IMG/VR virus record: IMGVR_UViG_3300030019_000576
DNA: 64,000 nucleotides
Strand: one strand, 5' to 3'
Source: a virus
Part shown: positions 1-62,707 of the stretch, piece after piece
Position numbering within the stretch: the first letter of the stretch is position 1
Layout: each line of letters begins with the position of its first letter
Position numbers and translations under genes: made by a program
The notes under the pieces: generated by a model
Databases searched by the model: none
Told to the model about the DNA's origin: nothing
The model's input: only the letters and a program-made list of their open reading frames with translations

Positions 1-874
1 ATTCAGTTTAAATTCAGTAATGGAAGATTTATTTTTAACTATTAAAAATAAAAATAAAAATCTTGATGTTAAAATAAGATTGAATATACCTAAAATTGAT
101 ATAAAAATAGTAAGTGATAGTTTTAGAATATTACAAGTTCTTAATAATCTTATAAATAATTCAATGAAATTTACTAAAACAGGATATATAGAATTTGGAT
201 ATATTAAGAATGAAGATAATTTTTCATTTTTTGTTAAGGATACGGGGATTGGTATAAAAAAAGAAGAAAAAGATAAAGTATTTGAAAGATATTCACAATT
301 TAAAAATAAAAGCAAAACAAATAAACCAATTGGTCATGGATTAGGGTTAGCAATTTCAAAAGAATTAGTTACTTTAATGGGTGGTAAAATTTTAATGGAA
401 TCAGAATATAATAAAGGTACTACATTCATGTTTACTATTCCGAATAATAAAAAGTTAAATAAAGTTAAAATATTAAAAAGTGATGAAGAATATTATGATT
501 CTAATTTCAATGGTAAAAAAATACTTATCGTTGAAGACATTGACTTCAATATTAAACTATTAGAATCTTATCTTGAAGATACTAACGCAACATTAATAAT
601 CGCAAAAGATGGTAATGATGCTATATTTAAATACAATGAATATAAAAATGACTTAAATATTATATTAATGGATATTCAATTACCCGAAATGAATGGTACT
701 GATGTCACAAAAATAATTAGAACTGTTGATAAAGAAACACCTATAATAGCACAAACAGCTTACGCAATGAAAGATGATATACAAGGGATTATGGATTGTG
801 GTTTTAATGATATTATTAACAAACCGATTAAAAAAGAAGATTTATTAAGAATGATTTATAAATATATTCTTTAA
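1..874 (+). CDS. hybrid sensor histidine kinase C-terminal part (HATPase_c plus REC receiver); 5' partial, the frame is open to the window edge
   Basis: The N-box IRLNIPKIDIKIVSDSFRILQVLNNLINNSMKFT and the G-boxes GHGLGLAISKELVTLMGG identify an HK ATPase. It is followed by KKILIVEDIDFNIKLL...LIIAKDGNDA...ILMDIQLPEMNG...KP, a CheY-like receiver with its Asp. Codons 2-19 carry no stop, so the gene continues upstream of the window. Confidence 0.7.
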   Translation, partial: FSLNSVMEDLFLTIKNKNKNLDVKIRLNIPKIDIKIVSDSFRILQVLNNLINNSMKFTKTGYIEFGYIKNEDNFSFFVKDTGIGIKKEEKDKVFERYSQFKNKSKTNKPIGHGLGLAISKELVTLMGGKILMESEYNKGTTFMFTIPNNKKLNKVKILKSDEEYYDSNFNGKKILIVEDIDFNIKLLESYLEDTNATLIIAKDGNDAIFKYNEYKNDLNIILMDIQLPEMNGTDVTKIIRTVDKETPIIAQTAYAMKDDIQGIMDCGFNDIINKPIKKEDLLRMIYKYIL

Positions 875-1604: not shown

Positions 1605-2132
1605 TTATATAGTTTTCTTTGGTTTTATTACAACAGACATTTTATGACCTTCTAATTTAGGTAATGCTTCTGCTTGACCAAATTCTGATAATGCATCAAC
1701 CAATTTTAATAATAAAAATTGACCTTTATCCGAATATATAATTTCCCTTCCTTTGAAGAAAACATATGCTTTTACCTTATCACCTTTCTTTAAGAAAGCA
1801 GTTGCATGATTTAACTTAAAATCAAAATCATGGTCATCTGTATTAGGTGTAAAACGCAATTCCTTCACTTCTGATAAGTTTTGTTTATTCTTCTTATCTT
1901 GTTCTTTCTTTTTCTTTTTTAATTCATATAGATACTTACTATAATCTTCTATCTTACATATAGATGGGGAAACATTGGAATTTACTTCTATTAAGTCTAA
2001 TCCTTGTTCATTAGCAATTTTTAATGCTTCGTATCGTGTATAAACACCGACTTCAATGTTACTTCCTACAAGACGTACTTCCCTTGAAGTAATCTCATTA
2101 TTAATTTTAACTAAATCTTCTTTTTTTGACAT
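1605..2132 (-). CDS. infC: translation initiation factor IF-3
   Basis: Aligns along its whole length to bacterial IF-3: EVRLVG...GV, ALKIANEQGLDLIEV, PVCKIMDY-like SICKIEDY, KELRFTP.TD.HD...KL, FLKKGDKVK...F+GRE. The start is ATG, not the atypical AUU. Confidence 0.8.
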   Translation of the reverse strand: MSKKEDLVKINNEITSREVRLVGSNIEVGVYTRYEALKIANEQGLDLIEVNSNVSPSICKIEDYSKYLYELKKKKKEQDKKNKQNLSEVKELRFTPNTDDHDFDFKLNHATAFLKKGDKVKAYVFFKGREIIYSDKGQFLLLKLVDALSEFGQAEALPKLEGHKMSVVIKPKKTI

Positions 2133-5641: not shown

Positions 5642-6118
5642 ATGAAACTAAACGTAAAAATTTGTGTGGGAATACCTGCTTCTGGGAAGTCTACCTTTTC
5701 AGCACAGTATGTTTTTGATAATCCTGAAACAAAGCGTATAAACAAGGACTGTTTGAGGGAAATGTTTAATCCAGGTAAAGTTACCAAAGTAAACGAAAAC
5801 TTCATTAGAATGTCTCGTATGAAGTTAATTGAGCTATGTATGATAATGGATAGACATGTATTAATTGATGATACTAACTGTATCCAAGAAAGATTGGATG
5901 AACTTATATCAGATATTAAAATTGCAGCAAGTGCAATGGGTAAAAAAGTTGAAATTGAAATAATTGATTTTCAAACGGATTTTCAGACTTGTTTAGAAAG
6001 AAATAGAAATAGAAAAAAGGTTGTAGAAGAAAGATTTTTATATTTTATGCAAAAATCAAAAGATAATTTGGATTTTAAAGCACTTAAATTCCATACATAC
6101 ACAATAAAAAAGGACTGA
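5642..6118 (+). CDS. polynucleotide 5'-kinase-like P-loop kinase (T4 Pnk kinase-domain-like)
   Basis: Walker A GIPASGKST, INKDCLRE, LIDDTNCIQERL and a C-terminal ERNRNRKK align with the T4 Pnk kinase domain; no phosphatase domain is present. TATATTTGTACC abuts the ATG, so the mRNA may be leaderless. Confidence 0.6.
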   Translation: MKLNVKICVGIPASGKSTFSAQYVFDNPETKRINKDCLREMFNPGKVTKVNENFIRMSRMKLIELCMIMDRHVLIDDTNCIQERLDELISDIKIAASAMGKKVEIEIIDFQTDFQTCLERNRNRKKVVEERFLYFMQKSKDNLDFKALKFHTYTIKKD

Positions 6119-8109: not shown

Positions 8110-8973
8110 TTAGTTAAGTCCGTGTTCATCAAGTAATTTAAACTTCTTGTTAACCATTGATTGTATTAACTGTCTACCTTTACTAATTTGTGATTTAATA
8201 GTTGAAAGATTTGTTGTTGTTTTATAAACCCCTATTAAAGAACCAATTGAATAAATTTCAATATCGTTGATATTCGATATTTCTTCACGATTTATATTAA
8301 ATATTGTTTGTGGTAAAATTTCAAATTCAATAACAATTTCTTTATCATAATGATTTTTATATGTAAATATAACATAGCTACTAACACTGCTATTATTTTC
8401 AAGTTCTAATGATAAAAATTCAGGTGTATCTTCCAATTTGAATGTTTCATCGTCAAGTTTTATTGAATATTCTTTTTTACATATATCAGCAATATCAAGA
8501 TACGTTTTATTTTCAATTTCCCGTAAAACCATAACATGTTTATATTTATCGGGTAACCTTTGAATTGCTTCTTTAACTAATTCTACTTTTTTTAATAAGA
8601 TTAAATCTTGTTCAGTTTTTACATCATCATATACCAAACTATTAGAAATAACCGTTGTAAGGTTTAAGTTATCATCATTTTGTTTATCCATAGAAACAAC
8701 ATTGAGTCGTTTTCTATCTTTATATTCTTTCTTTACTAAGTTTTCAGCTATTTTGTAAATCCATGTATGGATTTGTGATTTTTCAGCATTGAAGTTGTCT
8801 ATTTTTAATAGTGCTTGTGTAAATGCATCATCAGCAAAATCTTCTGCTATCTCTTGGTCTTTTGTGTATTTGGTCAGATGCCAAATTAATTTAGGTTTAT
8901 AAACTGCATAAAAATTAGAAAAATTAAGTCCAGTTATCTGTTCAAATTTGCGTGATAAGTTGTCGTTCAGCAT
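8110..8973 (-). CDS. RNA polymerase sigma factor, sigma-70/ECF type, with a C-terminal extension of about 110 aa
   Basis: Region 2 (IAEDFADDAFTQALLKIDNF, YKIAENLVKKEYKDRKR) and region 4 (LPDKYKHVMVLREIENKTYLDIADI) match ECF sigma architecture. Confidence 0.65.
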   Translation of the reverse strand: MLNDNLSRKFEQITGLNFSNFYAVYKPKLIWHLTKYTKDQEIAEDFADDAFTQALLKIDNFNAEKSQIHTWIYKIAENLVKKEYKDRKRLNVVSMDKQNDDNLNLTTVISNSLVYDDVKTEQDLILLKKVELVKEAIQRLPDKYKHVMVLREIENKTYLDIADICKKEYSIKLDDETFKLEDTPEFLSLELENNSSVSSYVIFTYKNHYDKEIVIEFEILPQTIFNINREEISNINDIEIYSIGSLIGVYKTTTNLSTIKSQISKGRQLIQSMVNKKFKLLDEHGLN

Positions 8974-22989: not shown

Positions 22990-23664
22990 TTATTCTAATC
23001 TTTCCCAATCTATTGGGTATTTTGATTTTAGTTCAGTCATCCACCAAACAGTTTTTACTTTAGATTTAGGTAAACGTTGACCTTTCATAAGGGTAGAACG
23101 CTTGCATACAACACCTTCTTTAACTGTTGGGTACAAACACCCAACTTTAGTCCAATCGTTGTTCTCAATTGACCATATGAAGTCTTTAGTTAACTTACCA
23201 ACGTATATTACTTCTGGTATTTCAATTTCATCAACATGTGCAAATAATTTATAAAATTCTTTTGGTTCAATATATCCTTTTTTATATAAGAATATATCAA
23301 TAAGACAAAGTTTCAATGGTTCACCTGGTACATGGAATCCACTGAATGTGTGTTCACCATACCATTCAAAAAATACTGTTATTTCTTTCACACCATTAAA
23401 AACCCCATTTTTAGAAGAATTTTTAATAAGTATTTCTTTAAGTCTTTCTTCTAAATTTGTTTTAAAATATTTAACAGCATCACCAAATTGTTCACTTGAT
23501 TCATCAACATTTTGTGTCTTAGAACCAAACATAGGGAATTCTTTTTGTTTAGGTGAAAACTTTGCACAGAAATTCTGTCCATCTATTTTATTAAATGCCC
23601 AAATTTCTTCACCCAATAAGGTACCATCGTATTTTATATTTTCAAAACTATCGTAATGTTTCAT
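22990..23664 (-). CDS. RNA ligase, Rnl2-like nucleotidyltransferase
   Basis: Motif I AFNKIDGQN (KxDG), FFEWYGE (motif III-like), EGVVCK (motif IV EGxVxK); the N-terminal HYDSFEN resembles T4 Rnl2 KYSSLEN. Confidence 0.55.
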   Translation of the reverse strand: MKHYDSFENIKYDGTLLGEEIWAFNKIDGQNFCAKFSPKQKEFPMFGSKTQNVDESSEQFGDAVKYFKTNLEERLKEILIKNSSKNGVFNGVKEITVFFEWYGEHTFSGFHVPGEPLKLCLIDIFLYKKGYIEPKEFYKLFAHVDEIEIPEVIYVGKLTKDFIWSIENNDWTKVGCLYPTVKEGVVCKRSTLMKGQRLPKSKVKTVWWMTELKSKYPIDWERLE

Positions 23665-29794: not shown

Positions 29795-30049
29795 TTATAT
29801 TAATCCGTAAAAATGGGATTTTTTAAAATTAATCATATTTACACGTATAGCATATTTAGTGTATTCATACTGTTTATTATCATCATAATCATAAATATAA
29901 ATTTTATCCCCAACAATTTTTTTTATTCTACACCTTGATTCAGTCCAAATTAATTTCGTGTATAAACCTTCACTAACACCAGACCATTTATATCTTTTAC
30001 CTTCAACTAAAACAGTACCGTCATGTAATATAATTTCTTTCATAAACAT
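29795..30049 (-). CDS. hypothetical protein
   Basis: Co-oriented ORF. Confidence 0.4.
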   Translation of the reverse strand: MFMKEIILHDGTVLVEGKRYKWSGVSEGLYTKLIWTESRCRIKKIVGDKIYIYDYDDNKQYEYTKYAIRVNMINFKKSHFYGLI

Positions 30050-30621
30050 TTATTTATTATATTTTTAAGTTCTTCTAAATCAACAATATAACTATTATCA
30101 ATCGTGTAATCAGATTTACTTTTTTTTAATTCAACATCCATTTGTGAAGATAATCTATCTTTTATTTGTTCAGCAGTAAAACCATTTCTACTTTTTAAAC
30201 GCTGTTCTACTATATCTTTATCTGCATAAATACAAATGACAGCATCAAAATTATCTTGTTTATTATGTTCAAATATTAATGCACTTTCATTAAATATAAT
30301 ATCTTCATCTTCGTGTAAATAACAAAAATGTTCAAATGCTTTTTGGATATATTTCGTAAATATACCATTTACTATATTTAATTTATCTTTATCTTTAAAT
30401 ACCAAAGACATATACTTTCTATTATATGTACCATCAGGTAAATATGCATCAGTACCAAATTCAGTAATAAGTTCACTTTTTAAATCAACATTATTGTTTG
30501 CTGCATAAGTAGCATGGTAATCAGAATAAAATACTGAATATCCTAATCCTTCTATCATTATACAAACTGTCGTTTTTCCACTACAAATCCCACCTGTTAT
30601 CGCTATCTTCTTGTTTTTCAT
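30040..30621 (-). CDS. coaE: dephospho-CoA kinase
   Basis: IAITGGICSGKTTV (CoaE P-loop), DGTYNRKYMSLVF, and C-terminal VICIYADKDIVEQRLKSRNGFTAEQIKDRLSSQ, all colinear with E. coli CoaE. Confidence 0.75.
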   Translation of the reverse strand: MKNKKIAITGGICSGKTTVCIMIEGLGYSVFYSDYHATYAANNNVDLKSELITEFGTDAYLPDGTYNRKYMSLVFKDKDKLNIVNGIFTKYIQKAFEHFCYLHEDEDIIFNESALIFEHNKQDNFDAVICIYADKDIVEQRLKSRNGFTAEQIKDRLSSQMDVELKKSKSDYTIDNSYIVDLEELKNIINKCL

Positions 30622-30926
30622 ATATTTAAATTAAATAATTATGTTGTTTAAATCGTAATTAAAATTGTCTGCAATAAAATGACATTACTAATAGATGCAT
30701 CACTTTATACACATTATAATAAAGTGATAATCACTAAAAAGTAAGTTATTAAAATGAAAAAAACGTTAAGAAAAAATGCATTAAAACAACAAAAAAGAAT
30801 TAAAAAAACATCATCAACAATTTCTAATAAATATAAAATATTATCAACTATTATATGTTTTATAATAAACAATTCTGATATAATATTAGATAATATTTCA
30901 AATATTATATCTATGATAAATTGGTT

Positions 30927-31850
30927 TTAAATTAAATATTTATCACCTTTACCATATTTTTGTAGCATCTTAATAGATGAACTACTTACATGTTCAAATT
31001 CTGAATCAGATAAGATATTAATAACCTTAATATCAGGTTTTAAATCTTTTAGATAACGATATTGTGTTTTTTCAAATTCTAAATCACTTGCATTTCTTAA
31101 TCCACGAATAAGTGTTACATCATATCCTAACCCATCAATGAAATCAGTTAGCAATCCAGTATAAAGTCCTGCTTGTCTATTTTTTAGTGTATTAGTTAAT
31201 GGTAATAGTTCATCTGACTTAGAAGTATTAATTCCACGTGCGATTATTACTTTATCAAAAATAGCTTCTGCTTTCTTCAATATATCATAATGTCCTACAT
31301 GAAATGGGTTAAAAGAACCTGCATAAACACCAATATTATATTTACGGTATTTAATATAATCAAGATATTCTTGTTTAATATTACCAAAATGCTTTTCTAA
31401 GAATTTAATTCTATTTTCTGTATATGTTTTTACATCAACAAATTGGTATTCTTTAAAAATACCATCTTCATATTTCATAAATGAATTGAAATCACCATAT
31501 AATACTGATAAATCATATTTATTCAATAGTTTAGAAGTTGGATTTACATCAATGTGATTCTTGGTAGCTAAAATTGCTTCATAAACATCAGGATAATTAA
31601 AAAATGTTTTAAAAAGTTCTGCTGACTTTTCTTCATTATCATTATTCATTGGATCATATACTATATCATGGAATACAATAGCAAGAAGTAATTCATCTGA
31701 TAATTTGTTATCATCTATTGCTTTCCCTATTAAATCCAATACATGATTCCAAGTATGGTAAAAACGTTGTGGTTCAGAATATCTTTCTTTGTAAAAATCC
31801 ACTAATCCCATTTTTTCCGAAATCAATTCTTCTATTAGTTTTATATCCAT
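30927..31850 (-). CDS. coaD: HD-domain protein fused to phosphopantetheine adenylyltransferase
   Basis: N-terminal HTWNHVLDL...VFHDIVYDP is an HD motif. The C-terminal half carries GVYAGSFNPFHVGHYDIL (HxGH), LIRGLRNASDLEFE and HVSSSSIK, colinear with E. coli CoaD (TFDPITNGHIDIV, LIRGLRAVADFEYE, ISSSLVK). Confidence 0.7.
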   Translation of the reverse strand: MDIKLIEELISEKMGLVDFYKERYSEPQRFYHTWNHVLDLIGKAIDDNKLSDELLLAIVFHDIVYDPMNNDNEEKSAELFKTFFNYPDVYEAILATKNHIDVNPTSKLLNKYDLSVLYGDFNSFMKYEDGIFKEYQFVDVKTYTENRIKFLEKHFGNIKQEYLDYIKYRKYNIGVYAGSFNPFHVGHYDILKKAEAIFDKVIIARGINTSKSDELLPLTNTLKNRQAGLYTGLLTDFIDGLGYDVTLIRGLRNASDLEFEKTQYRYLKDLKPDIKVINILSDSEFEHVSSSSIKMLQKYGKGDKYLI

Positions 31851-32404: not shown

Positions 32405-32647
32405 TCATCTTTTACCTTCTTTAAATGATTCTTTTGTCTTGTTTGAAAATGTTATTAAGTCTTCCAATGTTAAATTAAATTTATTCATTGAAAAACATTC
32501 AATAGCACCTATTAAATCTGTTAGTTCACATATTTGTAGAACTTTATCACCCTGTTCAATTGCATCAGTTAGTTCATCAATTTCTTCTTGAATCTTTGAA
32601 AATTCACCGATTACACCTTTTTTAATTTCGTTTTTATGATAACCCAT
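32405..32647 (-). CDS. MazG/HisE-like all-alpha NTP pyrophosphohydrolase (tentative)
   Basis: 80 aa with IQEEIDELTDAIE...ELTDLIGAI, matching the paired EExxE/D helical motifs of small MazG-like enzymes. Confidence 0.35.
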   Translation of the reverse strand: MGYHKNEIKKGVIGEFSKIQEEIDELTDAIEQGDKVLQICELTDLIGAIECFSMNKFNLTLEDLITFSNKTKESFKEGKR

Positions 32648-33194
32648 TTTTATATTTTTTTATTAACGTTGATAATCGTGGTTCAGCACATCCTGTTCCG
32701 TAAATCCATTTTAAGAATTCACATTCTCTTATACCATAACTTCCTAATTCGTTACCGTCAATAGTAATATCAAAACCTATTTCAGTTTGTACAACATCTA
32801 AATTTTGTTTAAAATATTGTTGAAAAAATTCGTATGATATTTTTATAATTTTTTGTAATTCTTCTTCATTTACCACATCAGTTTTTATTAATTCATTTTT
32901 AATAAAATATTGCATGTGTAAATAATCTACTGACTCATTACGAAAGCATGGTGTCGAACCTTGATAAGTTCCATGAGGAAGAAATTCTTTCAAATATAAA
33001 TATAAAAAAGATTGTTCACCGCTTGCAACTAATCGTTTATTATTAACATTTAGTTGAAATGGTGTTTTATTCTTTGGTCTTGTTATATCATCAACATATG
33101 GTGAAACCGTCCAAGGTAATTCAATACGTTGAAATCCATTTTCAGTATAATATTTTACTGAATCATCTAATAATTTGAAATCTATCATAGTCAC
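32634..33194 (-). CDS. class II aminoacyl-tRNA synthetase-like / AsnA-like catalytic-core protein (truncated)
   Basis: TPCFRNESVD matches class II motif 2 (fRxE); 186 aa, with no anticodon-binding domain. Confidence 0.35.
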   Translation of the reverse strand: MTMIDFKLLDDSVKYYTENGFQRIELPWTVSPYVDDITRPKNKTPFQLNVNNKRLVASGEQSFLYLYLKEFLPHGTYQGSTPCFRNESVDYLHMQYFIKNELIKTDVVNEEELQKIIKISYEFFQQYFKQNLDVVQTEIGFDITIDGNELGSYGIRECEFLKWIYGTGCAEPRLSTLIKKYKNGLS

Positions 33195-33396
33195 ATATTT
33201 TTTTTATTAAGAACGTTCTATATGTTGGATTACTTTTACCCAAGTAATACCACATTCTTTGTCCATTGCTTAAACTTTTCCAATATACTGAACAAAATAC
33301 CCTTACTTTCTTTTTAAGTTTTCTTGGTATTTTATTATCAGAAAATGATATTACTTTAGGTAAAGTAAAATGTTTATCTAAATCTTCGTATTTCAT
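33163..33396 (-). CDS. hypothetical protein
   Basis: Small basic ORF. Confidence 0.3.
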   Translation of the reverse strand: MKYEDLDKHFTLPKVISFSDNKIPRKLKKKVRVFCSVYWKSLSNGQRMWYYLGKSNPTYRTFLIKKICDYDRFQIIR

Positions 33397-34274
33397 TAGT
33401 TAATATATTCATCCATTAAAAATATTCCGCAAGAGCTTCCGCAATCTTGTCCTGGTGGGATATAATATTCATATTCAATATTATATTTTTTGAAGTGTTC
33501 AGCAAAAATTTCAACTTGTTTAAAGTCAGAATGTTTAGCTGGTATATTTTCTTTTTCATTATAATATAAAAACTTCACATTAAATCCTTTGTCTTTAATT
33601 AAATCAGTTAAACGTATAGCATCTTCTTCTGTATCATTTATACCATCAATTAATGCATAGTGAATTTCAACCTTATTACCCGTTTTTATTTTATAAAAAT
33701 CTGCTGCTGCTATTGTAGATTTAATATCTAATGATGCTTTCATCCATTCATTTCTTAATTCATCAGTAGTATAGTGTAATGATATATGCAATTTAACATT
33801 TAAATTTAACATATCAATTAATCTTACCATGTTAAAAAAATGTTCGTAATTATATTTTGGTAATGCAGTTGCAAATGCAAATCTTGTATTTACTTTATAT
33901 TCATTATTAATATAATTCATACTGTCAACTACTGCTTTATAATTTGTTACAGCATCACCCATACCCATGTAGCTTATTAAAAGTGTTTTTGGTTCAACCT
34001 TTAGCTTTAAATCAAGGTAGATATAATCAATACCATCTGTTATTTCATCCCAAGTTAAATTTCTTGATACAATTTTACCAATTAAATCAGTTGCAAAACA
34101 AAATTTACATGCTAAATTACATAATGTATTACATGGTACACATATAATATCTTTACCATCATTTTTATTGATATATGAAAATTCAATTATTAAATTATCT
34201 TCTGTGTAGAAAACATATTTAATAGTACTGTCAATAGTTGATTTAACTATTTTCTTTAATCTAAGTTTACCCAT
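33396..34274 (-). CDS. radical SAM methyltransferase, RlmN/Cfr family
   Basis: CVPCNTLCNLACKFCFAT aligns with RlmN CVSSQVGCALECKFCST. MGMGDAVTN aligns with MGMGEPLLN, LHISLHYTTDELR with LAISLHAPNDEIR, and C-terminal GQDCGSSCG with DDIDAACGQ (the conserved C-terminal Cys). Confidence 0.7.
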   Translation of the reverse strand: MGKLRLKKIVKSTIDSTIKYVFYTEDNLIIEFSYINKNDGKDIICVPCNTLCNLACKFCFATDLIGKIVSRNLTWDEITDGIDYIYLDLKLKVEPKTLLISYMGMGDAVTNYKAVVDSMNYINNEYKVNTRFAFATALPKYNYEHFFNMVRLIDMLNLNVKLHISLHYTTDELRNEWMKASLDIKSTIAAADFYKIKTGNKVEIHYALIDGINDTEEDAIRLTDLIKDKGFNVKFLYYNEKENIPAKHSDFKQVEIFAEHFKKYNIEYEYYIPPGQDCGSSCGIFLMDEYIN

Positions 34275-41938: not shown

Positions 41939-42400
41939 TCAAACTACCAAATGTTTATCCAATAATAATTCATTTAAATTTTTATAAAATGGTATTTTAT
42001 AGTCATCACATACTATTTTAACGTTACCACTTCTCCAATATTCATCAGGGCAGCATACGATTAACTTACCACTTGATGCTTGAAGACCTAATTCTAATAA
42101 TGATATAGGACTTTTACTATTTGGTAGAAAATTCATTATAATAATGTCTGAATATTCCATTGCATTTAATTCCCATTTTACTTGACCATAAAATTCTGCA
42201 TTTTCAATTTTTTGTTCCCATGAATCATCCCATACATCCCTACGTGGATTATATAATACTACATTCGGAAAACTACTAAAGTGTTCTTCAACATTTTTCT
42301 GCCAATTTTCAGATTCACCTTGGTCAATGGTACCTGCTAAAAAGATAGCAAATGTGCCATATGGTTTCTGTATTGGAATTGGTGGTTTATAACTTGTCAT
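41939..42400 (-). CDS. nucleoside 2-deoxyribosyltransferase-like (SLOG superfamily) protein, tentative
   Basis: GTFAIFLAGTIDQG resembles the YLAGP nucleotide-binding loop of NDT/DUF4406 proteins. Confidence 0.35.
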   Translation of the reverse strand: MTSYKPPIPIQKPYGTFAIFLAGTIDQGESENWQKNVEEHFSSFPNVVLYNPRRDVWDDSWEQKIENAEFYGQVKWELNAMEYSDIIIMNFLPNSKSPISLLELGLQASSGKLIVCCPDEYWRSGNVKIVCDDYKIPFYKNLNELLLDKHLVV

Positions 42401-43480: not shown

Positions 43481-43774
43481 TTAATGTTTCCAAATATATT
43501 TACTTAATACGAATTTCATCTTTCTATCAAAATCGGGATCATTTTCTAATTCTTTCAACATACCATAATGATATGATGTATCTAATGAATTATCATCGGG
43601 TTCACCGTTACGTAGAATCATTTGATAGTTATCATTTACATAAGAATCTTCATCTTCATATGTATTTATTTCATCAATATCTTCATGTATTCTTTCTAAT
43701 ACTTTTACTACTTCACGATAAAACATAACCTTTTTAAGTTTTTTATTAATCATTGAATTTTTTTTGAAAGTCAT
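43481..43774 (-). CDS. hypothetical protein
   Basis: Co-oriented ORF. Confidence 0.4.
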   Translation of the reverse strand: MTFKKNSMINKKLKKVMFYREVVKVLERIHEDIDEINTYEDEDSYVNDNYQMILRNGEPDDNSLDTSYHYGMLKELENDPDFDRKMKFVLSKYIWKH

Positions 43775-44255
43775 TAAAATCTTCGCAAAAAATAATCAAA
43801 TTTATTTGTTCGGATGTCATAAAATCACCCATATGTTTAAATAAATTAAACCATTGTTCACCGAATAAGTAAATATTTGGTTTTACAATCATTTTACGAA
43901 CTTCATCTAAGAGTAAAAATAATTCAGCAAGTGTTCCAATACCACCTCTTTGAATTACAAAGGTTTCGCTTTCAGCATTTAAATATCCTAATCTATCATA
44001 AATATCATTACATATAATAGTTTCAGTTAAAAATTCATTACCTTTTGTGAATCCAAAAGACTTACATGTATATCCAAATGCTTGTCCATCTGCTTCTGTT
44101 GCACCCTTTGATACAGCTTCCATTAACCCACGATAACCACCATTTTTAACTATAAAACCCTTATTAGCTAAGAATCCACCTATTAGAATACTATCATTAT
44201 ATTCCTTTGTTGTTCTATCATTGATAGCACCACCGAAAAAAGTTGCGTATTTCAT
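43746..44255 (-). CDS. LOG-family (Lonely Guy / TIGR00730) putative nucleotide N-glycosidase
   Basis: GGYRGLMEAVSKGA (the GGGxGxMgA motif) and QRGGIGTLAELF (the PGGxGTxxE motif). Confidence 0.65.
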   Translation of the reverse strand: MKYATFFGGAINDRTTKEYNDSILIGGFLANKGFIVKNGGYRGLMEAVSKGATEADGQAFGYTCKSFGFTKGNEFLTETIICNDIYDRLGYLNAESETFVIQRGGIGTLAELFLLLDEVRKMIVKPNIYLFGEQWFNLFKHMGDFMTSEQINLIIFCEDFNDFQKKFND

Positions 44256-45505: not shown

Positions 45506-46477
45506 TTAATTATTACTAATAAATTTATCAACAATATCTACACATTGTTTAAATCTGTCTTCAAAATCAGTTCCTTTAATGTAAGAAATATTCTTATCTT
45601 TAAAGTTATTGTATAGCAATTCGTGGAATTTTGAACGATTTGGTTCACCCATCCGACTACCATCATCAACAAAAGGTACATCATTCCATAGGAATAAGTA
45701 TAAATCAAATTTATTTGCATCTTCTACTTCCTTAGTGATATTTTCTGGGTGTTTATCAAATAGAAAGTTACTATAACAAACAGTTGTTATTAAATCAGTA
45801 TCAGAAAATAATATTTTATCCCCTAAGTTTTTTTCAATTTCTTCTGCTTGACCTGTAATTATTAGATTTATCATATCTGTATCACATATTTTTGTATCTG
45901 AACACACATCACGACCTACTTCTTTTGCAAACTTAAAGTTATAGTGATTAGATAATAATTCTGTCATAGTTGATTTACCAGTACTTTCAGTACCACATAT
46001 ACATATTTTTTTAGTATAATATGATTTAACTGATTTTGGTATAAAATTCCAATATTTTAATGGTGTTTCCCTTATTGATGTAGATGAAATCGGTGTGTTT
46101 GTTCTTTTTTCATCGTATTGCATATGTTTAATATTCATAAATCCACCAACATAATCACCATATTTTTCACTTGTGAAAATTATATTCACATCAGGAAATA
46201 AATCTGTTAAATATAAAGACCAAACCCTTGATATTTCAATATTTGATACAGATGTATTTTCCATATGTGATGTATCCTTATGAATTATTTTTATATTAGG
46301 TATATCTTTAAATTCTTCTTGTAACCATTTATATCTAAGTTCGCTTGGAATTTCTTCTTTATCGTGTGAGCATAATAATACATAAAGAAAATCAGAATTT
46401 GATAATCCAAAGTTTATTAAAGAAAGATGTCCATTATGTAAAGGACAAAAACTACCTAATACTAATCCTGTTCTCAT
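45506..46477 (-). CDS. nadR: bifunctional NMN adenylyltransferase / ribosylnicotinamide kinase (NadR type, lacking the HTH domain)
   Basis: GLVLGSFCPLHNGH (HxGH). ISSTSIRETPLKYWNFIPKSVKSYY...ICGTESTGKST aligns with E. coli NadR ISGAQIRENPFRYWEYIPTEVKPFF...ILGGESSGKST. A Walker B DTD is present. Confidence 0.85.
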   Translation of the reverse strand: MRTGLVLGSFCPLHNGHLSLINFGLSNSDFLYVLLCSHDKEEIPSELRYKWLQEEFKDIPNIKIIHKDTSHMENTSVSNIEISRVWSLYLTDLFPDVNIIFTSEKYGDYVGGFMNIKHMQYDEKRTNTPISSTSIRETPLKYWNFIPKSVKSYYTKKICICGTESTGKSTMTELLSNHYNFKFAKEVGRDVCSDTKICDTDMINLIITGQAEEIEKNLGDKILFSDTDLITTVCYSNFLFDKHPENITKEVEDANKFDLYLFLWNDVPFVDDGSRMGEPNRSKFHELLYNNFKDKNISYIKGTDFEDRFKQCVDIVDKFISNN

Positions 46478-46478
46478 T

Positions 46479-47024
46479 TTACGTTGTTTTTAAATGTTTT
46501 TTCCATTCTTTATAACCCGCAATTGATAATATTATTAATAATAAATTATACCCTGCGATGTAATACATATCTTGATGAAGACATAATATAATTAACATTA
46601 CATTATTTATCATAAAAATCCACCAAGATTCAATAACCTTTTTAACTAATAAATATGTTGCAAGTAGTGCGATAATACCACCTATACCATCAAGATATAA
46701 TAAATTATTATTAGTTGTTTTAGTTAATAATGTAAAGATAATACCAATCACCATGCATATTCCTATGCATAGTGCTGATTTAGTATATCCTATTTTTGTA
46801 ACTTCTTTTGTATCAACTTCATTCCATTTTACCCAACCATACGCACATTGACCAACTGAAACAAGTTGTAATACCATCTGTGAATAAAAGTTTACATTAT
46901 AAAAGTAATAGGTTAATAGTACTGCACTAATTAATCCAAATACCCAACAAAGTAGATTTTGTTTAATTGTTAAAAACACACTTACTATTCCAATAATGAC
47001 TGAAATTAATTCAATATTTTTCAT
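46479..47024 (-). CDS. pnuC: nicotinamide riboside transporter
   Basis: CAYGWVKW and C-terminal ESWWIFMINNVM...IAGYNLLLIILSIAGYKEW align with PnuC (NIYGWYAW, ENWLLWVIINV...). Its start overlaps the receptor stop (TAATG). Confidence 0.8.
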   Translation of the reverse strand: MKNIELISVIIGIVSVFLTIKQNLLCWVFGLISAVLLTYYFYNVNFYSQMVLQLVSVGQCAYGWVKWNEVDTKEVTKIGYTKSALCIGICMVIGIIFTLLTKTTNNNLLYLDGIGGIIALLATYLLVKKVIESWWIFMINNVMLIILCLHQDMYYIAGYNLLLIILSIAGYKEWKKHLKTT

Positions 47025-48997
47025 TAAAATTTAACTTTAACTGTTGTATAAAAATTAAGTGGAGCACCTATAAAATAAGCATTTTCCCCATTTGAAACAT
47101 ACCCACCCGTAAAGTATTTAGTGTTAGTTAAATTATTACCTTGAATTGATAAGTTTACATTTTTAGTTAATTGATAACCAATTTTTGCATTGAATAATAC
47201 ATAACCAGGAATTGTTTCAGTATTTGCAGGATTAATAAATGCATCCGATAAATATCGACCAGATACGTTTATAAAGAGCTTACCGTTGTTGTATTCAATA
47301 TTCTGATTAACTATTACATTTGGTGTATAAAGTGCGTGATATGATGTGTTATCACCTTTAATTTCACTATTCATTAATGTTGTATTATTATTTATAGATA
47401 AATTTTTTGTAAGATTACATGAAAAATCAAATTCTGCACCATAACGTGAACTTTTATCTACATCTGTCATTAATGGTAAACTATTTAACCCCATTGCACC
47501 TAATTGTGTAATTTCATTATTAAAGTCCATATAAAACAAATTACTTTGAAGTTTCACAACACTATTTGATAAGTTATAACCAAGTTCATAGTCAATAACA
47601 CTTTCAGGTTTAATTATAAATAAATCAACTAAATTATCATTCCCACCGAACATGTCACTTCTTGTAGGTTCACGGTGTGATTGACCAACCGAAAAATACA
47701 AAGATTCATTATTTGTAATTGTGTATGTCACACCCCCACGTGGATTTAAAAACAACCAATTAATTCGTTTCATTGGATTATCACCTATGTAAGTGAAGTT
47801 AACATTACGTAATTGTAAGTCAGTAAATAAACTAAATTTATTTATATCATAATTTGCTTTGATGTAAAAACTTCCTTCGTTTTTATATCCAGTATTTGTA
47901 TATAAGGAATCAATCTGAACAGAACCAGGGTGTGTCATATTTCCACTGTGTGTTCGATTATATGTATTAAGCTGAAATCCAGTGTTAAATTTTAAATCAT
48001 TATATTTTATAAGATAATTTGATGTGAACCCAACGAAATTAGAATTTAATCCAAAATTAAGCAAGTCAGTTGGTGCAGTAAACATACCCCATTTACCATC
48101 TAAATGATTGTAAAAGAAAGTATTTGTTAGAACATAATTACTTGATTCACTATGAACATATTGTAACTGTACAAAACTTTGATTAAAATCATCATTTTCA
48201 CCTTTAGGGTTATAATTTGTGCGAGGGTCTTTTAATATATCAGATTCTGATACTGCATACCATGCCATTTGATTAATTGATTTACCCGAAAATGCAGTCA
48301 ACTTTAATACATCCTTATTACCATAGTATCCACCCGAAAGAAATGCTGAATAACCACTACCACTTGAATTATATTTATACCCATCACTTGTATATTCTGA
48401 TACACTACCAAATAACGCAAATTTATTAATTAAACCCGTACCAAAATTAACATTAAGTGATTGTGTTCCAAAACTACCCGATGTAAAACTTGCATTAAAA
48501 CCTTTATCTAAACCTGTTTTACTTTCAAAATTAATACTACCACCATATGAAGATGTACCATTTGCTGATGTACCAATACCACGTTGGATTTGCATAGAAT
48601 TAATATTCATTGCGAAATTAGGAAAATTGCTAAAATATACCCCTTGGTCTTCACTTTCATTTAACGGAATACCATTTAATGTCATATTTATACGTGTTTG
48701 GTCAATTCCACGAATTCGAAATGATACATATCCATTAGGTTGACCACCATCAGATTGTGATGTAATTGATGGTGTTTTATCTAAAATATACACCATTTCT
48801 TGACCACTGTATTGCTTATCAATGTCAACACTATTGACAACTTTTTGGGAAATAGGTGTTTTAATATCTGGTCGAATACCTACAACTTCCACGTCATTTA
48901 ACTTTACTACTTTTACAGTATCTTTTGATACTTGCGAATAAGAGGTAAACACATTAAATAATGCGATAACCAACACAAAAAATTTAATTTTCTTCAT
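47024..48997 (-). CDS. TonB-dependent outer-membrane receptor
   Basis: Signal peptide MKKIKFFVLVIALFNVFTSYSQ, an N-terminal plug region, a long beta-barrel with alternating aromatic strands and a C-terminal ...VKVKF (terminal Phe). Confidence 0.7.
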   Translation of the reverse strand: MKKIKFFVLVIALFNVFTSYSQVSKDTVKVVKLNDVEVVGIRPDIKTPISQKVVNSVDIDKQYSGQEMVYILDKTPSITSQSDGGQPNGYVSFRIRGIDQTRINMTLNGIPLNESEDQGVYFSNFPNFAMNINSMQIQRGIGTSANGTSSYGGSINFESKTGLDKGFNASFTSGSFGTQSLNVNFGTGLINKFALFGSVSEYTSDGYKYNSSGSGYSAFLSGGYYGNKDVLKLTAFSGKSINQMAWYAVSESDILKDPRTNYNPKGENDDFNQSFVQLQYVHSESSNYVLTNTFFYNHLDGKWGMFTAPTDLLNFGLNSNFVGFTSNYLIKYNDLKFNTGFQLNTYNRTHSGNMTHPGSVQIDSLYTNTGYKNEGSFYIKANYDINKFSLFTDLQLRNVNFTYIGDNPMKRINWLFLNPRGGVTYTITNNESLYFSVGQSHREPTRSDMFGGNDNLVDLFIIKPESVIDYELGYNLSNSVVKLQSNLFYMDFNNEITQLGAMGLNSLPLMTDVDKSSRYGAEFDFSCNLTKNLSINNNTTLMNSEIKGDNTSYHALYTPNVIVNQNIEYNNGKLFINVSGRYLSDAFINPANTETIPGYVLFNAKIGYQLTKNVNLSIQGNNLTNTKYFTGGYVSNGENAYFIGAPLNFYTTVKVKF

Positions 48998-57104: not shown

Positions 57105-57785
57105 TTAATCCATTCCAATGATTTTATCAATTGCACCGTATTCTTTAGCTTCAACCGAAGTCATCCAATAATCACGTTCACAATCTGCTGAAACTTTTTC
57201 AAGTGGTTGACCAGTCCTGGTTGAAATAATTTCATATAATTCATTCTTTAAAAGTTGAATTTGTTTGTATGTTATTTCAATTTCAGTTGCTTGACCTTGA
57301 ACACCCCCAAGTGGTTGATGTTGCATTAACCGTGAATGTTTTAAACAAGACCGATTTTTTCCCGATATAGATAGAATGTATGCCATACTTGCAGCAATAC
57401 CTGTTACTATCGTATTTACATCCGGTTTAATAAATTCCATCGTATCAAGAATACTATATCCAGCGTAAATTCCACCACCACCACTATTAATATATAAATT
57501 AATATCAGTTTTATCTGTTGAATTCATATAAAGTAATTGTCCTGTAATAATGTTAGATACATCATCATTGATAGCTGTTCCTAAATAGATAATTCGATCC
57601 ATCATCAAACGACTAAATACATCCATTGAAGCAACGTTTAACTGTCGTTCTTCAATGATAGTTGGATTAATATAACTGCTACTAAGTGTATTAGTAAATT
57701 TGCGATAACTATCTAAAGTTGTAGAACTTATACCTTGTGATTTTAAAAATAAGTTCACATCTTTTTGAAATTTTTGTTCGTTCAT
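57105..57785 (-). CDS. clpP: ATP-dependent Clp protease proteolytic subunit, with an N-terminal extension of about 45 aa
   Basis: GIAASMAY (catalytic Ser), LMQHQPLGG (His) and ERDYWMT (Asp) are intact; YINSGGGGIYAG is the INSPGG loop. Confidence 0.75.
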   Translation of the reverse strand: MNEQKFQKDVNLFLKSQGISSTTLDSYRKFTNTLSSSYINPTIIEERQLNVASMDVFSRLMMDRIIYLGTAINDDVSNIITGQLLYMNSTDKTDINLYINSGGGGIYAGYSILDTMEFIKPDVNTIVTGIAASMAYILSISGKNRSCLKHSRLMQHQPLGGVQGQATEIEITYKQIQLLKNELYEIISTRTGQPLEKVSADCERDYWMTSVEAKEYGAIDKIIGMD

Positions 57786-57814
57786 AATTTATTTGTTTTA
57801 AAATTGTTTTTATA

Positions 57815-58879
57815 TTATTTAAAATTGTTAAGTTTTGAAAGTTGATTTAATAATTCTTCTTCTTCATCCGTTATTTGTTTTGGTATTGTTAAATTAACAA
57901 CTACTAATAAATCACCTCTATTACCACGTTGGTCTGCTAATCCCTTACCTTTAAGTTTTTTAACATCATTTGGTTTAGTGAATTTATTTATTACTATTTT
58001 AACATCACCTTCTAACGCTGGTATAATTGCTTCACCACCTAATATTAGCTTAGTATATGGAAGATATAAATTAAATATAAGATTTTGTCCGTCTCTTTGT
58101 AATTGTGTATTATTAATAACATCTATAAATATAATAAGATTCCCATAAATTCCACCATTTCCTGGTCTAATAGGTGAATTACCTTTACCACTTGCTTGAA
58201 ATTTATCACCATGATTAATACCTTTTGGTACGTTCACATTTAATTCTGTTTCTTCCTTTACAACACCAGTACCTTTACATTCATTACATTCATGTGTAAT
58301 AATATATCCATCACCTTTACATTTAGGACAGTCAACAGTTGACATAATTATGGTTGAACCCATTTGTCTTTTCATGTTTACCTTACCCGAACCATTGCAA
58401 TCTGAACAAGTATCGTGTTCCCCACCCCAACCATCACAAGATTTACATTTAACTTCACGATTATATTTAATCTTTTTATCTAACCCACTGATAACATCAG
58501 TTAAATCAATAGAAATTTTTAATTTAATATCATATCCACGTTTTATATTACGATTTGGTTGTGATTGAAATCCACCACCAAATCCACTGAATCCACCGAA
58601 TGCACTACCAAACATATCAGCGAATATATCACCTGAATTAAATCCACCAAACCCTGTTGGACCATCTGGATTACCATAGTTATCATAATTAGATTTTTTA
58701 GCATCATCACCTAAAACAGAATATGCTTCTGAAAGGTCTTTAAATTTTTCTTCGAAATCTTTATGTTCAGGATTCTTATCAGGGTGATATTTTTTTGCTA
58801 AGTTTCGGTATGCTTTTTTAATATCATCTTTTGATGTATTTTTATCTACACCTAAAACTTCATAATAATTTTTTGACAT
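57815..58879 (-). CDS. dnaJ: molecular chaperone DnaJ (type I: J domain, G/F region, four CxxCxGxG repeats, C-terminal domains)
   Basis: YYEVLGV...[13 protein letters not shown] includes the HPD motif. A G/F-rich linker follows, then [32 protein letters not shown]. Confidence 0.8.
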
Positions 58880-61239: not shown

Positions 61240-61770
61240 TTATTTTATTTCTTTTACTTCTAATATATTTATAATTGTTTGATTTACCCCTTTAAATGTA
61301 GTATGCTTTTTTACAGTAGCTATTATTTTAATAATATCACCTACTTCTAATTCTTTTCTTTTATTTTCACCAGTGAAACAGTATACTTCATATGTTTTTG
61401 GATTATAGAAATTAACCCTTCTATTTCCACTAAAATGGGTAGACTTTAAATGAAGTAATTCTACATCTGTCATTTTATTTCTATCCAATATACAATGAAT
61501 TACACCATCTTTTATTTCAACTTTTACAAGTTTATCGAAGAGTTCATTCGTTTGATTTCTTACTACTGTTCCAGTTATAGCACAAGTATATTCAATATAT
61601 GAAATAAACCATATTTTTCTTTCTTTAGCTATGATAGTATTACCTTCCTTATCAACAAAAGTATAAAATACATAAGTGTATTCTTCTTTATTAATAAACT
61701 TAATACCTGTTAATACAAGTTCGTGAAAGTATTGATACTTATCTATTTTACCTATAAAATTATTTTTCAT
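61240..61770 (-). CDS. hypothetical protein
   Basis: Co-oriented ORF. Confidence 0.4.
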   Translation of the reverse strand: MKNNFIGKIDKYQYFHELVLTGIKFINKEEYTYVFYTFVDKEGNTIIAKERKIWFISYIEYTCAITGTVVRNQTNELFDKLVKVEIKDGVIHCILDRNKMTDVELLHLKSTHFSGNRRVNFYNPKTYEVYCFTGENKRKELEVGDIIKIIATVKKHTTFKGVNQTIINILEVKEIK

Positions 61771-62707
61771 ATAAATTATTTTTAATCATTTTTTGTGTAA
61801 CCCAATGTTTAGAATTTGGATTTACATGATTTTTTCTAACCCATTTTACAACAGATTTACCAAAATCTTTATAACTAAAACTTTCTGCAAGTCTAATTAC
61901 ATATCCTTCTTGAAATTCAGGATTAATTGTGAATTTCTTAATAAAATCTAAATCAAATATACCACGATATAAAACTGTTACTGTTTTTAAATCTAATAAT
62001 TTACACCATTCTACGGTATCATCCCAAGACAATGCATAATTTCTATCATTCCATATATTAAATACCATAAAATAAGATGGTAAATTATCATAATGTAATG
62101 AATGTTGTGCGTATAAATTTTCACCACATATTCTCCAATTTTGTGGTATATCATAACGAATATTACCCCAAAGTCCTTTTAACCAATTTCTTGATGGGTG
62201 ATTATTAGAATCTAATGAACGTGCAAAACAGCTATCATTCATAAGTGTTGAATTTTCCCCATCCATTTTTTCAGTTATTACAATTTCCTTACCTATAAAA
62301 TATGATAAATCATATGTAATTTTATCATCAGATGTAGCACCTTCTGACCATTCCACGTGACGTGTTCTCGGATATTTCATTTTATTGTTTTCCATAATAA
62401 CTTCACCCCATTTATCATAACTTAAATCTTCATCAAACCCATCAGGTAGTATTATATTTGTAATACTTGCTTTTATTCTTAATGTTTCACAACTTAAAAT
62501 ACCATTTTCTGCTTCTATGTGGTGTTTTTCACAAAGGGAAACACCATTATTCAAATAATACCCACCATCAGTAAACTGCTTTCTATCAATTATATGGTGA
62601 ACATCAATTGCAATGCACCCACATACAACGCATTTATTAGAATCCCTTTTGAAGGTAGATTCCCTAAATTCATCACGTGTTAATAATACATTACCAATTG
62701 TTTTCAT
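61760..62707 (-). CDS. HNH-like zinc-finger domain fused to an Rnl2-type RNA ligase
   Basis: N-terminal CVVCGC...VHHIIDRK...N...CEKHH (HNH). After that: motif I ITEKMDGEN (KxDG), ICGENLYAQHS (motif III), EGYVIR (motif IV), KWVRKNH (motif V, lysines). Confidence 0.55.
   Translation of the reverse strand: MKTIGNVLLTRDEFRESTFKRDSNKCVVCGCIAIDVHHIIDRKQFTDGGYYLNNGVSLCEKHHIEAENGILSCETLRIKASITNIILPDGFDEDLSYDKWGEVIMENNKMKYPRTRHVEWSEGATSDDKITYDLSYFIGKEIVITEKMDGENSTLMNDSCFARSLDSNNHPSRNWLKGLWGNIRYDIPQNWRICGENLYAQHSLHYDNLPSYFMVFNIWNDRNYALSWDDTVEWCKLLDLKTVTVLYRGIFDLDFIKKFTINPEFQEGYVIRLAESFSYKDFGKSVVKWVRKNHVNPNSKHWVTQKMIKNNLYEK

Follow-up and report, generated by a model that had tools for sequence, protein, structure and literature searches.

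The closest described counterparts of the two genes considered here are bacterial CoaD (TIGR01510) and CoaE (TIGR00152), the phosphopantetheine adenylyltransferase (PPAT) and dephospho-CoA kinase (DPCK) that carry out the last two steps of coenzyme A (CoA) synthesis. The genes lie side by side in a 64,000-nucleotide stretch of viral DNA (IMG/VR record IMGVR_UViG_3300030019_000576; the whole of this stretch is referred to below as the window). They appear to encode the same two chemistries in pathway order, with the catalytic residues of both enzymes retained; PPAT is the closest solved fold of the transferase and the kinase is a full-length DPCK. Unlike bacterial CoaD and CoaE they are found on a phage, and the transferase differs from CoaD in an additional 170-residue N-terminal HD domain, a short helix α2, two changed pocket positions and a profile score below the curated cut-off. 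In eukaryotic COASY the PPAT and DPCK activities reside in one bifunctional protein, whereas in the window they are separate genes. The features of the locus are as follows.

30927..31850, minus strand: HD-PPAT fusion gene, 307 residues (open reading frame; 755 homologues; AlphaFold2 model)
31341..31850, minus strand: N-terminal HD-fold metal-dependent phosphohydrolase domain of the fusion, residues 1–170
30927..31340, minus strand: C-terminal PPAT (CoaD-type) domain of the fusion, residues 171–307
30622..30926, no strand: AT-rich spacer of 305 nucleotides between coaE and the fusion gene
30754..30930, plus strand: doubtful 58-residue open reading frame, mostly inside the spacer
30040..30621, minus strand: coaE, dephospho-CoA kinase, 193 residues (matches to TIGR00152, PF01121 and PDB entries)

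A pairing of an HD hydrolase with an adenylyltransferase is known from the synthesis of nicotinamide adenine dinucleotide (NAD). YqeK is an HD diphosphatase that is fused to or clustered with NadD and hydrolyses mis-made dinucleotide analogues and diadenosine tetraphosphate (Ap4A) (PMC9426524). NadD–YqeK of Firmicutes and mycoplasmas likewise joins an HD phosphohydrolase to a same-fold HxGH adenylyltransferase for a dinucleotide-type cofactor, and exists in stand-alone, clustered and fused forms, as does the HD family of the window; by analogy, its proofreading would be the closest precedent for the HD domain described here. AcpH, another member of the HD superfamily, is a phosphodiesterase whose product is the PPAT substrate, which E. 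coli excretes instead of recovering it (PMC8557913). It has no detectable sequence relationship to the HD half. Homology is found instead with stand-alone proteins of about 205–220 residues annotated as 'predicted metal-dependent HD superfamily phosphohydrolase' and with the phage family phrog_19425 (E values down to the 1e-50s), which have no transferase and share the motif set R..YH..H / FHD.VYD / NEE.S with the HD half. This stand-alone family is presumably COG4339. Literature searches on COG4339, on HD and PPAT fusions and on phage PPAT with DPCK found nothing relevant.

From the comparisons that follow we consider it fairly probable that this gene pair is a terminal module of CoA synthesis or salvage carried by the phage, in which the HD domain would act as a coupled hydrolase.

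The dephospho-CoA kinase

The sequence-only reading of the window had aligned 30040..30621 end to end with dephospho-CoA kinase, and profile comparison bears this out. The 193-residue protein scores 110.9 bits against TIGR00152 (cut-off 65.55; profile positions 2–182 of 188) and 99.1 bits against PF01121 (cut-off 27; E = 3e-28, profile positions 3–175 of 180). Its P-loop, GGICSGKT at residues 9–16, fits the N-terminal GxxxxGK[ST] signature. The PDB matches at E ≤ 1e-3 are without exception DPCKs or the DPCK domain of CoA synthase (15 of 15), the best being 2if2 (E = 2.5e-18, residues 4–181 aligned). Assignment to another P-loop kinase family was checked and is not indicated: the protein exceeds the curated CoaE cut-off, while other kinase models give E ≥ 2e-5 and fall far below their own cut-offs. 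By sequence analysis its membership of the CoaE family is as secure as such analysis allows.

The transferase domain

The predicted structure of the 307-residue fusion protein is of high confidence (AlphaFold2; predicted local distance difference test, pLDDT, 92.9; predicted template modelling score, pTM, 0.85). Both open reading frames are present as described. GSFNPFHVGH, LIRGLRNASDLEFE and VSSSSIK, the motifs quoted in the sequence-only reading, all lie in the C-terminal half; the N-terminal half contains YHTWNH...FHD. The best profile for the C-terminal half is CoaD/TIGR01510 (E = 4.4e-24), followed among specific families by NMNAT (E = 1.2e-5, 24.6 bits against a cut-off of 409). Membership of NadD or NMNAT, which would have contradicted the proposed colinearity with PPAT, was not found, the NMNAT and NadD models all giving E ≥ 1e-5 over the HxGH motif region only. 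The best 34 PDB matches are all PPATs, down to E = 2e-15, and among nucleotidyltransferase classes PPAT is by far the nearest to the predicted fold, so that both profile and fold place this half closest to CoaD.

Mutagenesis of the Helicobacter pylori PPAT identified T10, H18, K42, R88, R91, S128–130 and R/K133 as essential (PMC12784347). Alignment with E. coli CoaD gives their counterparts in the window protein as S179 (a conservative T-to-S change), H187, K211, R249, R252, S289–S291 and K294, most of which are invariant or nearly so among 27 family members. The GLL segment, equivalent to D72-L73-M74 of the E. coli enzyme, is also kept. We take L73/M74, L102 and N106 of E. coli PPAT to line the pantetheine pocket. 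The profile, predicted fold and catalytic residues thus support a CoaD-type identity for this half, and its substrate would by the same comparison be 4'-phosphopantetheine.

The HD domain

The N-terminal half carries the H...HD...D metal-ligand motif on an all-helical HD/phosphodiesterase fold, as had been proposed from its H…HD motif, with a Pfam score below threshold. Against Pfam HD (PF01966) it scores 15.8–17.3 bits (gathering cut-off 22); the same model matches 11 of 17 family members, with a best E value of 2.8e-4, and the family itself has neither a Pfam nor an NCBIfam model. The match to phrog_19425, annotated 'phosphohydrolase', is stronger (E = 6.5e-14). Modelled alone, the domain is predicted with a pLDDT of 93.3, and its closest folds are phosphodiesterases. 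Residues R29, H32, H36, H61-D62, N72-E73, H99, D113, E134, D139 and R147 are invariant in the family. These sequence and model comparisons identify the N-terminal half as a real HD domain, and the retained motifs make it look catalytically competent. The domain is acidic (median isoelectric point 5.4).

Membership of the YqeK/COG1713 family of Ap4A hydrolases was not found for the HD half, either by sequence or by closest fold. AcpH was tried as a homologue and rejected: hhalign against the E. coli protein gave a probability of 0.2%, and ACP_PD (PF04336) matched none of 17 members at E ≤ 10.

Distribution and phylogeny of the fusion

A search of a 5.8-billion-protein set for HD-PPAT fusions, recommended together with the sequence-only reading, returned 755 homologues of the full-length protein, the best 120 of which are about 300 residues long and cover 85–100% of the query. 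Chromosomal fusion genes with 40–50% identity occur in both cultured and uncultured Bacteroidota. Carriers include many Mucilaginibacter isolates, some with complete genomes, as well as Sediminibacterium, Thermonema, Raineya, Xanthocytophaga, Microscilla and Ignavibacteria/Kapaibacteria. Two search patterns together matched at least 158 species, and the distribution in Bacteroidota is patchy. Existing labels for these proteins are pantetheine-phosphate adenylyltransferase (JGI) and 'adenylyltransferase/cytidyltransferase family protein' (NCBI). HD-PPAT is therefore an established and abundant family of Bacteroidota chromosomes and huge phages and not a phage oddity; its earlier description as a non-standard CoaD architecture stands in comparison with textbook CoaD, but does not extend to the large family that already exists. 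A viral structure library contained no protein with the HD-PPAT two-domain architecture (best TM-score 0.45, normalized to the query).

The neighbourhood in 80 Bacteroidota loci is one of housekeeping synteny (a pair of M16 peptidases, a membrane protein, rpsO and pnp), and no functional partner gene of the fusion emerged from these loci. In 15 of the 80, coaE lies about 5 kb from the fusion on the opposite strand.

In a simple neighbour-joining tree the window protein groups with other phage copies, and the sister of this phage clade is a large bacterial one; further phage copies branch more deeply. The deeper branches and the sister position together argue against a very recent capture from a host. 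A 10-kb contig labelled 'MAG: bacterium' (JAUHXI010000034.1) encodes a fusion protein that shares 54% identity with the window protein and nests within the phage clade; this contig is probably a mis-binned phage fragment.

Probable coupling of the HD family to PPAT

A profile of the HD domain retrieves 12,621 cluster representatives (50% identity clusters) at E ≤ 1e-3. Among the best 146 there are 76 HD-PPAT proteins, four with the reverse order (PPAT-HD) and 66 stand-alone proteins, and CTP_transf_like is the sole recurrent partner domain. The four PPAT-HD proteins, which lie on short contigs without gene context, have a canonical-looking CoaD domain with a full α2 and N106, which suggests that the fusions arose independently. 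Since the same partner has been fused in both orders, the HD activity is likely to be tied functionally to the PPAT reaction, and this domain-order comparison provides strong evidence for such a coupling.

The distant part of the family consists of stand-alone proteins of 205–220 residues that are widespread, even in fungi and animals. Their gene contexts are uninformative in bacteria and phages alike, and no link to acyl carrier protein (ACP) or fatty-acid genes was seen. In two phage contigs a distant stand-alone relative lies directly beside an AAA_33 kinase (L030 431–1617, with L031), and in two others (L044 7964–10555 and L037) such relatives lie within two genes of an RNA ligase. These placements are hints that part of the HD family may work in RNA end-healing.

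Linkage to coaE in phages

A coaE gene adjoins a full-length fusion in four divergent phage lineages, namely the window, L007/L008 (59% identity), L026 (32%) and L028 (36%), with coaE upstream of the fusion in L026. These coaE-linked fusions occupy three separate positions in the neighbour-joining tree.

A census of the INPHARED phage collection (50,697 records) found CoaE in 19 records and PPAT/HD in 53. Four huge-phage records have PPAT/HD matches (LR756501, LR756503, LR756502 and LR745206), and every one of them also encodes CoaE, far off in the genome, where an overlap of about 0.02 records is expected by chance. The clear cases are huge phages of 630–735 kb. Bacterial housekeeping genes are contained in the phage-labelled records MG065686.1, MG065691.1, 'Listeria phage LM', 'Bacteriophage sp.' and 'Acinetobacter phage MD-2021a', so that the CoA-gene matches in the collection are partly contamination. 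A search of the collection with E. coli CoaBC likewise found mostly bacterial contamination, for example a CoaBC with 100% identity to the E. coli K-12 protein. PPAT together with DPCK is thus as rare in phages as had been supposed, several of the few matching records being seemingly bacterial.

Proposed function and alternatives

In the proposed mechanism the C-terminal domain would transfer AMP from ATP to 4'-phosphopantetheine to give dephospho-CoA and pyrophosphate, and the adjoining CoaE would phosphorylate the 3'-hydroxyl of dephospho-CoA to give CoA. The N-terminal domain would be an active metal-dependent phosphohydrolase coupled to the PPAT reaction and not a passive appendage. Its preferred role, which we infer largely from the analogy with YqeK, is that of a small-molecule diphosphatase or phosphodiesterase that edits the products of PPAT or supplies its substrate. 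It might degrade incorrect nucleotide-pantetheine products or by-products formed by the transferase, which is the part that YqeK plays for NadD, or it might liberate 4'-phosphopantetheine held in a bound or damaged form and so make it available for renewed adenylylation. On this phage, which also carries genes for NAD salvage, the CoA module would probably uphold cofactor pools during infection outside the regulation of the host. A more specific proposal is that the HD domain is a proofreading or repair diphosphatase for PPAT products, or a hydrolase releasing 4'-phosphopantetheine, that was recruited to PPAT independently in both orders, and that huge phages deploy it with CoaE as a CoA salvage and repair module which upholds the CoA pool or counters a CoA-depleting or CoA-damaging response of the host. 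Such a module would be analogous to the NAD+ reconstitution pathways of phages; in this full form the proposal is speculative and, on balance, doubtful.

If a terminal CoA module is the correct interpretation, huge phages of Bacteroidota would carry their own terminal CoA-synthesis set beside NAD salvage, and phage cofactor maintenance would take in CoA as well as NAD+. Quite apart from the phage, the comparison flags a large uncharacterized HD family (about 12,600 representatives) whose sole recurrent partner is PPAT. Fusion in both orders gives a typical Rosetta-stone signal, pointing to an activity that is missing from CoA metabolism, and we regard this link as the most valuable lead from the analysis.

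Several observations weigh against a CoA module with a coupled HD hydrolase. In nine of 13 distinct viral loci, one of them in a 675-kb phage, no CoaE gene lies within 10 kb of the fusion, and no further CoA-pathway gene occurs among the matches listed for the window, which cover 25 of the 30 matched families. Each of the two domains, HD and PPAT, is also found singly in phages, where its partner is missing from the vicinity. In the 735-kb uncultured phage LR756501.1, a 323-residue homologue (L141 2923–3894) keeps the HD motifs EPHRYWH...FHDIVYD...NEEKS and has lost the HxGH motif (GSFxPxHxGH) of the transferase half. Its C-terminal half is probably an inactive PPAT remnant, which would mean that the HD function can matter without PPAT activity. 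The HD half resembles YqeK only weakly and has no detectable kinship with AcpH. To our knowledge, CoaD is a near-universal single-copy bacterial marker, which makes the Bacteroidota fusion a probable paralogue with a substrate that could have shifted. In the PPAT half, the score against TIGR01510 is 85.3 bits, below the equivalog cut-off of 103.3, helix α2 lacks about 11 residues relative to canonical CoaD, and the positions of E. coli L102 and N106 are occupied by an invariant Q263 and by L267. The sub-cut-off score and the two changed pocket positions are the reason for naming 4'-phosphopantetheine as the substrate conditionally.

These last features would be explained if the transferase half were a diverged CoaD paralogue that uses another phosphorylated acceptor or nucleoside triphosphate and makes or recycles, alone or together with CoaE, a product other than CoA, such as a modified cofactor or a nucleotide-linked signal. 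The patchy distribution in Bacteroidota, suggesting an accessory gene and not a housekeeping coaD, and the generic NCBI name would also fit. Such a drift in specificity nevertheless seems unlikely, as the phosphate-binding and ATP-binding residues of PPAT are all kept together with the GLL segment, the fold remains much nearer to PPAT than to other nucleotidyltransferases, the PPAT-HD fusions have a canonical-looking CoaD domain, and a bona fide CoaE repeatedly lies next to the fusion, as expected for the CoA pathway. A different reassignment would leave the transferase as it is and make the HD domain an AcpH-like phosphopantetheinyl hydrolase, so that 4'-phosphopantetheine released from holo-ACP would pass through PPAT and CoaE, moving the ACP prosthetic groups of the host into CoA and shutting down fatty-acid synthesis. 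The fusion would then solve the loss of a product that is exactly the PPAT substrate, and both the phosphodiesterase-like fold of the domain and the recurrence of PPAT as its sole fusion partner, in both orders, agree with this. We nevertheless consider an AcpH-like role improbable: the hhalign and ACP_PD comparisons detect no relationship, an acidic domain is unexpected for binding the very acidic ACP, and the stand-alone HD proteins are not associated with ACP or fatty-acid genes.

The module might instead run in a catabolic or remodelling direction, with the HD domain removing the 3'- or 2'-phosphate of CoA or iso-CoA or cutting the pyrophosphate and with PPAT working in reverse, which would lower host CoA or provide dephospho-CoA for 5' capping of phage RNA. 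The PPAT reaction is reversible (PMC12784347), and the occurrence of distant HD relatives beside an AAA_33 kinase or RNA ligase in some phages is reminiscent of Runella HD-Pnk, an end-healing 2',3'-phosphoesterase (PMC6097658); the window itself encodes two RNA ligases and an AAA_33 kinase. However, the RNA ligase and kinase association is confined to two or three lineages and no HD-kinase fusion was found among the 146 and 120 closest HD relatives. A catabolic or capping role is disfavoured above all because the adjacent CoaE would oppose it, undoing a CoA 3'-phosphatase and draining dephospho-CoA in a futile cycle, and it is judged very unlikely. The synthetic direction, towards CoA, with an editing or substrate-supplying HD domain is thus the interpretation retained here.

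Genomic context of the locus

The window has a G+C content of about 25%, and almost all of its open reading frames are on the minus strand. Its sole DNA similarity, at about 65% identity, is to the 635–642 kb 'uncultured phage' records LR745206 and LR756502. Phage-type content comprises a primase, an RNA ligase fused to HNH, many families known only from PHROG and a protein with a weak match to a virion structural protein. The window also has genes of cellular type such as are typical of huge phages: a TonB-dependent receptor, PnuC and NadR, a sigma-70 factor and a hybrid histidine kinase/response regulator, the catalytic domain of a microbial-type PARG, and IF3, ClpP and DnaJ. Viral contigs in IMG/VR, the largest of 675 kb, carry relatives of the fusion gene. 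On the basis of this gene content, the similarity to LR745206 and LR756502 and the viral contigs bearing fusion relatives, the window is treated as part of a huge phage. The distribution of homologues suggests that its host probably belongs to the Bacteroidota.

No terminator-like site was found in the 305-nucleotide spacer, and promoter-like sites are present at chance level (26, against 28.5 expected from shuffled sequence). The 58-residue plus-strand open reading frame that had been noted there as possible does exist, but it has no homologue beyond identical copies of the same contig. In L007/L008 a different open reading frame, of 80 residues and on the same strand, lies between the fusion gene and coaE. 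The genes directly upstream of the fusion are as follows.

32405–34274, minus strand: MazG/PRA-PH-like protein of 80 residues, class-II aminoacyl-tRNA synthetase (aaRS)-core-like protein of 186 residues and RlmN/Cfr-like radical S-adenosylmethionine (SAM) protein of 292 residues

The first of these matches phrog_6408 (E = 6e-28), the second phrog_4806, 'histidyl tRNA synthetase' (E = 2e-38), and the third TIGR00048 (E = 1e-34, below the cut-off). An RlmN-like gene is also found near the fusion in L007/L008. Genes of about 190 residues lie upstream of several viral fusions and are mutually unrelated.

Elsewhere in the window, three contiguous genes look like a complete NAD+ uptake and salvage module.

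47024–48997, minus strand: TonB-dependent receptor
46479–47024, minus strand: PnuC nicotinamide mononucleotide (NMN) transporter
45506–46477, minus strand: NadR (NMN adenylyltransferase and AAA_28 kinase)

This module is an instance of phage investment in cofactor supply and as such fits the proposed CoA role. The RNA ligases and the AAA_33 kinase may constitute an RNA repair toolkit. Their positions and those of the other genes recorded are given below.

22990–23664 (minus strand), 61760–62707 (minus strand) and 5642–6118 (plus strand): two RNA ligases, one with a fused HNH endonuclease domain, and a probable AAA_33 P-loop kinase
20–874 (plus strand), 1605–2132 (minus strand), 8110–8973 (minus strand) and 57105–58879 (minus strand): hybrid histidine kinase/response regulator, IF3, sigma-70 family factor, ClpP and full-length DnaJ
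41939–42400, minus strand: nucleoside 2-deoxyribosyltransferase-like gene
43746–44255, minus strand: SLOG/LOG 'lysine decarboxylase-like' gene

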